Below are positions 11,080 to 13,079 of a stretch of DNA of 16,366 nucleotides, piece after piece. The DNA comes from a virus. Lineage: Duplodnaviria; Heunggongvirae; Uroviricota; Caudoviricetes. Below the pieces are notes generated by a model, which made no database searches, was not told the DNA's origin, and worked only from the letters and a program-made list of their open reading frames with translations. A program made the position numbers and the translations under genes. The stretch lies in IMG/VR virus record IMGVR_UViG_2698536392_000011; one strand, 5' to 3'. Positions within the stretch are counted from its first letter, which is position 1. Each line of letters opens with the position of its first letter.

Positions 11080-13079
11080 CAGTGAAATACTACGCCATTC
11101 TGACTAATCAGGGCGCGGCACGACTGGCTAACGCGACGATGCTCGGCAGTAAGCTGAATCTGACGCAAATGGCCGTTGGTGATGCAAATGGTGTGTTACC
11201 AACACCAGACCCTGCACAAACAAAACTGATTAACCAGAAACGCATTGCACCGCTGAATCTTCTGAATGTTGACCCTAACAATCAGAGCCAGATTATTGCG
11301 GAGCAAATCATCCCTGAAGACGAGGGAGGATTCTGGATCCGTGAGATTGGTCTTTATGATGATAAAGGTGTACTCATTGCGGTGGCAAACTGCCCGGAAA
11401 CGTACAAACCGCAGTTGCAGGAAGGCAGTGGACGCACCCAGACTATCCGCATGATTCTGGTTGTCATGAACACCAAAGCCATCACGCTGAAAATCGACCC
11501 GTCTGTGGTTCTGGCAACCCGCAAATATGTGGATGATAAAATCTCAAAGCACGAGCAGTCACGACGTCACCCGGACGCCTCGCTGACCGCAAAAGGCTTT
11601 GTTCAACTCAGTAGCGCCACCAACAGCGATTCAGAAACGCTGGCGGCAACACCAAAGGCGGTAAAGGCAGCCTATGACCTTGCTAACGGGAAATATACCG
11701 CACAGGACGCCACGACAGCACAAAAAGGCATTGTCCAGCGCAGTAGCGCCACCAACAGCGATTCAGAAACGCTGGCGGCAACACCAAAGGCGGTAAAGGC
11801 AGCCTATGACCTTGCTAACGGGAAATATACCGCACAGGAGGCCACGACGGCACAAAAAGGAATTATCCAGCTCAGTAGTGCAACCAACAGCACATCTGAA
11901 ACGCTTGCTGCAACACCGAAAGCAGTGAAAGCAGCTAATGACAATGCGAATGGTCGGGTACCTTCTGCCCGTAAGGTGAATGGTAAGGCGCTTTCGGCGG
12001 ATATAACACTGACGCCGAAAGATATTGGTACGCTTAACTCAACAACAATGTCATTCAGCGGTGGTGCTGGTTGGTTCAAATTAGCAACGGTAACCATGCC
12101 ACAGGCGAGTTCTGTTGTTTCAATTACGTTGATTGGTGGCGCTGGATTTAACGTCGGTTCACCTCAACAGGCAGGTATATCTGAACTTGTTTTGCGTGCA
12201 GGTAATGGTAATCCGAAGGGGATTACTGGTGCTTTATGGCAGCGCACATCGACAGGGTTTACAAATTTTGCCTGGGTCAATACATCTGGTGATACTTACG
12301 ATATTTACGTTGCAATCGGAAATTATGCGACTGGTGTAAATATTCAATGGGATTATACCAGTAATGCCAGCGTGACGATTCATACGTCACCGGCATATTC
12401 TGCTAATAAGCCGGAAGGGTTAACGGACGGTACAGTTTATTCACTCTATACGCCATCAGAGCAGTTTTATCCGCCTGGCGCACCAATCCCGTGGCCATCG
12501 GATACCGTTCCGTCTGGTTATGCCCTGATGCAGGGGCAGACTTTTGACAAATCTGCCTACCCGAAACTTGCAGCCGCTTATCCGTCAGGCGTGATCCCTG
12601 ATATGCGTGGCTGGACGATTAAGGGCAAACCCGCCAGTGGCCGGGCCGTATTGTCTCAGGAACAGGACGGCATTAAATCGCACACCCACAGCGCCAGCGC
12701 ATCCAATACGGATTTGGGGACGAAAACCACATCGTCGTTTGATTACGGTACTAAAACGACCAGTTCATTTGATTACGGCACAAAAACCACAAATAGCGCA
12801 GGAGCTCATTCACACAATATACCTGTTGGTCACACTGGCGCGGGGAATGGTGTATCAGCCGGTTATAACGCTGCGTTAGGTACTGGTACCACGTCGAGCG
12901 CAGGAGAGCATGCTCACAATGTATATATCGGTGCCCATAACCACACTATCGGCATTGGTGCTCATGCCCATTCTGTCATTATTGGTCCCCACGGACACAC
13001 CATCACCGTTGATGCTACGGGGAACGCAGAAAACACCGTAAAAAACATCGCATTTAACTATATTGTGAGGCTTGCATAA
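11076..13079 (+). CDS. H: Tail fiber protein gpH, with conserved N-terminal domain, tandem fiber repeats and a His-rich C-terminal tip
   Basis: ATG 11076 overlaps the I stop (ATGA). 667 aa with a P2 gpH-like N-terminus ([20 protein letters not shown]...), three [30 protein letters not shown] repeats and five HxH motifs near the C-terminus. Confidence 0.9.
11578..11957 (+). repeat. In-frame tandem repeat inside H, 132-bp unit (44 aa), about 2.7 copies
   Basis: Units begin at 11610, 11742 and 11874. Copies 1 and 2 are identical for roughly the first 98 nt and differ at a few positions near the unit end; copy 3 is diverged and partial. Confidence 0.85.
12717..12800 (+). repeat. 30-bp in-frame tandem repeat inside H ([10 protein letters not shown] x2 then GTKTTNSA), with synonymous differences between copies
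   Basis: gggacgaaaaccacatcgtcgtttgattac / ggtactaaaacgaccagttcatttgattac / ggcacaaaaaccacaaatagcgca read directly from the sequence. Confidence 0.8.

Follow-up and report, generated by a model that had tools for sequence, protein, structure and literature searches.

Gene H and its surroundings

The DNA analyzed here (the window) is a stretch of 16,366 nucleotides, deposited as virus record IMGVR_UViG_2698536392_000011; it matches two E. coli chromosomes, those of 2013C-4830 and 2012C-4227, at 100% identity. Its carrier is a defective E. coli prophage that is P2-like and belongs to the Peduoviridae. The tail-fibre gene at the center of this study, its terminal domains and its downstream neighbor were located as follows.

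11076 to 13079, plus strand: tail-fibre gene H, an intact ORF of 667 aa with Pfam matches PF12571, PF03406 and PF07484
11076 to 11525, plus strand: N-terminal baseplate-attachment domain (aa 1-150), full PF12571 profile, E 2.4e-61
12426 to 13076, plus strand: C-terminal receptor-binding tip (aa 451-667), homologue of the T4 gp37 needle (PDB 2xgf, E 8.3e-77)
12711 to 12800, plus strand: second in-frame tandem repeat of H, within the tip (30 nt, three copies)
13079 to 13657, plus strand: tail-fibre assembly chaperone (Caudo_TAP; PF02413, E 1.1e-40), annotated tfaQ

H carries the label 'phage tail protein' in the 100% identical RefSeq record and is built as a mosaic: a P2-type N-terminal domain is followed by three PF03406 repeats, then by a middle region and finally by a tip like that of T4 gp37. 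In the Pfam analysis, PF03406 matched three stretches of H with 205.3 bits against a gathering cut-off of 22 (E 6.6e-62), and the best stretch (aa 169-209) covered profile positions 1-41 of 42. The copies stand in series within a prophage tail-fibre protein, an arrangement expected of members of this family. Judged by this match, the 132-nt repeat is the catalogued 'phage tail fibre repeat' PF03406, with a period of 44 residues, in a P2-type H. The Collar domain (PF07484) lies downstream of the repeats. The tip contains His-x-His motifs, as in the T4 gp37 tip with which it was aligned, and the chaperone encoded at 13079 to 13657 goes with this tip. The 30-nt repeat in the tip has one copy more than the T4 gp37 crystal construct.

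By Pfam, the upstream neighbor of H is P2 gene I and the downstream neighbor is the Caudo_TAP chaperone. The locus order V-W-J-I-H-chaperone, taken from the RefSeq annotation and backed by Pfam for I, J, U and the chaperone, is that of a P2-like late operon. The PF12571 N-terminus and the late-operon position are both those of P2 gpH-type fibres. A functional fibre of this type would belong to a phage able to build virions; this prophage is decayed, although the H ORF itself is intact. The H protein of coliphage P2 (NP_046775) has the same PF12571 N-terminus and the same I-H-chaperone order; its PF03406 units begin at aa 167 (aa 166 in the window), and the first units of the two proteins are identical at 42 of 44 residues. 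P2 H, however, has two units that share 83 of 132 nt, whereas the window has three units with an exact run of 99 nt, and the distal half of P2 H is unrelated to the T4 gp37- and lambda Stf-like tip in the window. The two also differ in tail gene layout: the T-U tail block of the window phage group lies on the opposite strand, whereas the F operon of P2 is oriented as H, with fun(Z) after G. In the window, U and T occupy the minus strand (13701-16343 block) and converge on H and the chaperone, a layout kept in relatives L002 to L007 and thus an architecture of the lineage. A hexapeptide 'serine acetyltransferase' gene (13701-14273), which looks like cargo, lies between the chaperone and the tail genes.

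The lesions of the prophage are spread over the window. An IS600 end (1-145) splits the large terminase gene (fragment at 187-690, minus strand), and frameshifts were found in the capsid gene (near 2152-2222), in the DUF6645 gene (near 6478-6510) and in the baseplate gene J (near 10032-10074). Furthermore, an IS3 element just past the window end cuts short the tape-measure gene on the minus strand. The decay concerns the tracts 1-690, 1704-2757, 5657-7535, 9583-10478 and 14931-16366.

The repeat array and the near-identity of its first two units

Tandem Repeats Finder reported an array of period 132 at 11591-11942 (2.7 copies, 89% matches, indels absent), and a second repeat search returned three copies at spacings of 132 and 132. 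The units are contiguous, head-to-tail and in the frame of the H ORF. Their positions, and those of two features shared between them or lying within them, were as follows.

11571 to 11702, plus strand: repeat unit r1 (aa 166-209), chimeric, with its 5' 36 nt of r1 type and its 3' 96 nt equal to r2
11703 to 11834, plus strand: repeat unit r2 (aa 210-253), which carries Leu222Arg
11835 to 11966, plus strand: repeat unit r3 (aa 254-297), last in the array and diverged, joined to the distal fibre part
11609 to 11839, plus strand: both copies of an exact 99-nt run (11609-11707 = 11741-11839)
11606 to 11621, plus strand: single recombination breakpoint in r1, between the last r1-state and the first r2-state site

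The first two units are identical at 119 of 132 nt, compared with 97/132 for r2 and r3 and 88/132 for r1 and r3. At lag 132, exact identity extends over at most 99 nt, and the window contains no longer exact direct repeat. Shuffled versions of the window (n = 20) gave longest runs of 12 to 16 nt, which rules out a chance origin of the run. These results agree with the initial annotation, which had placed in-frame 132-bp tandem repeats with about 98 shared nucleotides at 11578-11957: the repeats were recovered by Tandem Repeats Finder, the ORF and Pfam, and the span was essentially right, the in-frame units occupying 11571-11966. Its naming of the gene as tail-fibre gene H was also correct. It had counted two copies; the near-identical pair is real, but a third, diverged unit follows it. 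It had also overlooked the Pfam identity of the unit and the defective state of the prophage. An antisense ORF (11804-12097, 97 aa) lies wholly inside H and is without any support.

To trace the origin of the pair, we used as reference the closest differently structured relative, E. coli 55989 (L004, which equals L002). Over gene nt 1-1686 the two H genes share 98.1% identity, and both have three units. The r1 and r2 of 55989 are told apart by 23 sites. At these diagnostic sites, the window r1 is in the r1 state at 11 of 11 between 11572 and 11606 and in the r2 state at 12 of 12 between 11621 and 11702. Accordingly, 12 of the 32 differences between the window and 55989 are packed into 82 of the 1686 nt, within r1 (binomial P = 1.6e-8). 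The distribution of diagnostic sites thus shows replacement of the 3' 96 nt of r1 by r2 sequence, which created the 99-nt run. Because 11 of the 12 differences between r1 and r2 in this 3' part of 55989 are synonymous, the near-identity of the units is not imposed by the protein, and the pair is old. Protein constraint as the cause of the nucleotide identity was rejected on the same grounds, the relatives differing synonymously.

The same chimeric r1 was found in strain 90-3040 from the USA (L008), in O55:H7 strain DEC5E (L009) and in a bovine isolate from Okinawa (L010). The event therefore predates the divergence of these prophages, and an artefact of a single assembly is ruled out. Tandem repeats are a known source of collapse and mis-correction, many database homologues are 'partial' and stop at contig ends, and the relative with five units is a draft, so that an assembly or polishing error in one genome had to be weighed as the source of the near-identity. 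However, the three-unit sequence occurs at 99.7-100% identity in six complete E. coli genomes, the three of these whose H was compared all have the chimeric r1 and come from different sources, the 99-nt run is shorter than an ordinary short read, and the breaks in the partial homologues lie over 100 aa beyond the repeats rather than within them. We consider such an error extremely unlikely. Most of the database homologues are labelled partial, and their contigs end 100-350 aa past the repeats; short-read assemblies evidently break there, in a distal part that is shared among several prophages per genome.

As read from these alignments, the units have recombined with one another, either by gene conversion or by a deletion that was later re-duplicated. 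Most simply, a gene-conversion tract of at least 82 bp would have passed from r2 to r1. A single conversion and a deletion with phase-shifted re-duplication nevertheless fit about equally well, and either route calls for two additional point changes in the 5' portion of r2. Within its 5' 36 nt, the window r2 has two differences from the 55989 r2 and two from r3, a pattern that would also fit a two-unit intermediate re-duplicated out of phase. This last point, together with the multiplication of r2 units in the lineage (three of them identical in L012), speaks for another account, in which a whole unit was freshly duplicated and has diverged little since, without exchange between old units. Under that account, differences between r1 and r2 should be scattered; instead, the 12-13 differing sites all lie in the first 36 nt, the next 96 nt are identical and the boundary is sharp. 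The sister lineage, moreover, also has three units, with 23 mostly synonymous differences between r1 and r2, as expected of an old pair, and the two-unit hybrid intermediate was not found. We therefore regard a fresh duplication as unlikely and retain recombination between existing units. The earlier suggestion of a recent duplication or gene conversion is supported to the extent that all 12 changes in r1 convert it to r2 sequence.

A second instance was seen in the four-unit H genes of relatives L005 and L006. These genes have 13 differences, all of them in the third unit (L005 gene nt 782-873), a pattern that is an independent patch replacement within the repeat.

Variation in unit number and the repeat block as a mosaic joint

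We compared the number of units among relatives. Three units are present in the window, L002, L004 and L008 to L010, four in L005 and L006, and two in L007. The H gene of L003 has two units and equals that of L004 minus exactly 132 nt, plus one SNP; the end-point of this deletion is ambiguous over 20 nt common to r2 and r3. Draft genome E. coli 3-475-03_S3_C2 (L012, H region 3001-4536) has five units, including three nucleotide-identical r2 units in the middle, a count that is uncertain in a draft, as the number of identical 132-nt units in a row of three cannot be read from short reads. Its r1 and 381 nt of downstream sequence are identical to those of the window. Among the best 120 homologues, a unit HMM found 2 to 6 units in a strict 44-aa period, and homologues P0073, P0007 and P0002 carry three, four and five units, respectively, on one alternative distal type. 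The fibre of phage 500465-2 has no unit at all. In the sequences compared, unit number thus varies among otherwise near-identical genes (2, 3, 4 and 5 units), and every variant seen keeps the reading frame.

The initial annotation had proposed that the array expands and contracts, an idea that an identical copy number across all relatives would contradict. The relatives ranged from 0 to 6 units, and the L003 gene, one unit and one SNP away from L004, is a clear example of such a change. Its warning of assembly collapse did not apply to the window, on which six complete genomes agree, but was apt for the five-unit draft. More generally, repeat counts in short-read E. coli assemblies are untrustworthy once units are identical, as in that draft.

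These changes raise the question of whether unit number is under selection. Contingency-locus or frame-switching behavior was rejected, as 132 nt is a multiple of three and not a 1-9-nt unit. A different proposal would make unit number an adaptive, fast-switching length knob that matches the thickness of the host surface layer, instead of the product of near-neutral slippage. It gains from the observations that unit number changes between genes elsewhere 0-1 SNP apart and that it varies within each distal receptor-binding type. The same variation, however, is equally seen in a decayed prophage, unit number is uncoupled from distal type, and 132-nt units should recombine far less often than contingency loci with units of 1-9 nt slip. 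From the sequences at hand, we consider a length knob of this kind distinctly unlikely. A more specific version, in which PF03406 unit number would be selected as an adjustable reach setting for the depth of O-antigen or capsule and homogenised units would keep the switch fast, appears very unlikely.

The repeat block also marks a change in relationship along H. Similarity to P2-like phages ends at about H nt 462-468, and similarity to other E. coli fibre genes begins at about H nt 451-526. Identities binned along alignments with P2 H, L005 and L007 showed the block as an island of 80-100% nucleotide identity between unrelated flanks. This pattern shows that the repeat block coincides with the joint at which N-terminal and distal modules are combined, and the block may have taken part in the exchange. 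Haggård-Ljungquist et al. in 1992 and Sandmeier in 1994 are said to have argued for module recombination from the fibre sequences of P2, Mu, P1 and lambda.

Repeat-like DNA is widespread. Of 5426 complete E. coli genomes searched with a 581-nt query across the repeats, 2404 contained it, with two sites per genome as the median; the survey yields no copy-number distribution, as most matches are partial and to other fibre types. The sites include lambdoid side-tail-fibre genes, and many E. coli genomes carry DNA of about 89-91% identity in their 'prophage tail fiber N-terminal domain' genes. The Pf2 repeat of lambdoid side tail fibres and of EHEC collagen-like prophage proteins is the same PF03406 and likewise a spacer module (PMC3368898). 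These lambdoid and EHEC proteins differ from H in having other N-terminal domains (PF08400) and other neighbors (collagen, coiled coil).

Phage 500465-2 (Gemsvirus) has the closest N-terminal fibre domain (97.6% nucleotide identity over gene nt 1-465), which it combines with the unit-free fibre mentioned above. It also has a Mu/P1-like invertible fibre segment, whereas the window prophage is without one. The region concerned (L015 4671-5665) contains a DNA invertase together with a second chaperone and a fibre fragment, both in opposite orientation.

The units as putative shaft modules in a decayed prophage

We infer that each unit would form one short folded module of a homotrimeric fibre shaft. 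The modules would lie between the baseplate-docking N-terminus and the distal receptor-binding part, and their number would set the length of the proximal shaft. At the DNA level, the comparisons show long and similar direct repeats that recombine out of register. Such recombination copies patches from one unit to another, and it also adds or removes whole units with the frame intact.

The closest structural analogy is with T4. The crystal structure of T4 gp34 shows serial 'mixed alpha-beta fibrous' repeats, and in the repeats of gp34 and gp12 a Gly opens the beta-strand and a Ser/Thr-Pro opens the central helix (PMC5537660). Along the trimer axis, the helices of the gp34 repeats assemble as a bundle of three (PMC5537660). 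The window units appear to follow the motif logic and the register of the gp34 and gp12 repeats and would likewise stand in series in a shaft. In an hhalign comparison, G9 and T27-P28 of the window unit were aligned in the gp34 Gly and Ser/Thr-Pro register, a weak match (probability 33%, P 4.6e-4). The two systems differ in that gp34 units vary from 33 to 55 aa, whereas the window units are a strict 44 aa, and a Pfam scan for PF03406 gave no match on T4 gp34 or gp37. An AlphaFold2 monomer model of aa 151-320, built from a 19-row alignment, was unusable (mean pLDDT 37.9, pTM 0.17).

A profile of the unit searched against the PDB matched phage Mu tail fibre S at residues 111-151 (E 5.5e-19), and hits beyond Mu S were noise (E >0.4). 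This segment of S (gp49; PDB 5YVQ, 9KI1, 8JU3) is one copy of the repeat (DASLNKKGLVQLTSATDSPSETLAATAKAVKIAMDNAN). Mu S differs from H in that only one of its stretches matched the repeat profile and in having another N-terminal domain and an invertible distal part. The Mu study (PMC11915804) does not describe the fold of segment 111-151, and our literature search turned up a listing of the repeat family and a description of the gp34 fold, but no paper measuring the effect of unit number.

Taken together, the locus is best explained by PF03406 units that would serve as shaft modules, that recombine with one another and that sit at a mosaic joint, in a fibre that is probably idle; from the combined evidence, we consider this joint explanation highly probable. 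Neither the gene nor the repeat family is new, and fibres of this kind are already known to be mosaic. The H repeats add a well-resolved local case of concerted evolution within a gene, combining patch conversion with the gain and loss of units, and no new principle. The case also has practical consequences. A difference in unit number alone is no ground for assigning different receptor specificities to fibre genes. Of use in phage engineering, 0 to 6 units are tolerated in natural fibres between the N-terminal docking domain and the distal part, and the conserved repeat block is a natural splice point for fibre chimeras.

Because the carrier prophage is decayed, its fibre probably does no work today. 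Relative to outgroup 55989, the window-lineage H has four non-synonymous derived changes (T131M, L222R, D255E and V264I) and one synonymous change. The L222R change together with the decay of the prophage suggests relaxed constraint, on small numbers. It arose by T>G at 11740 (CTC to CGC), which replaces Leu222 with Arg in r2. All four relatives compared at this position (L004, L008, L009 and L010) have CTC, and L222R is confined to the window and its 100% matches. At column 13 of the unit, Leu is present in 384 of 385 in-register units, the sole Arg being that of the window. In a prophage that is dead, L222R probably reflects degeneration.
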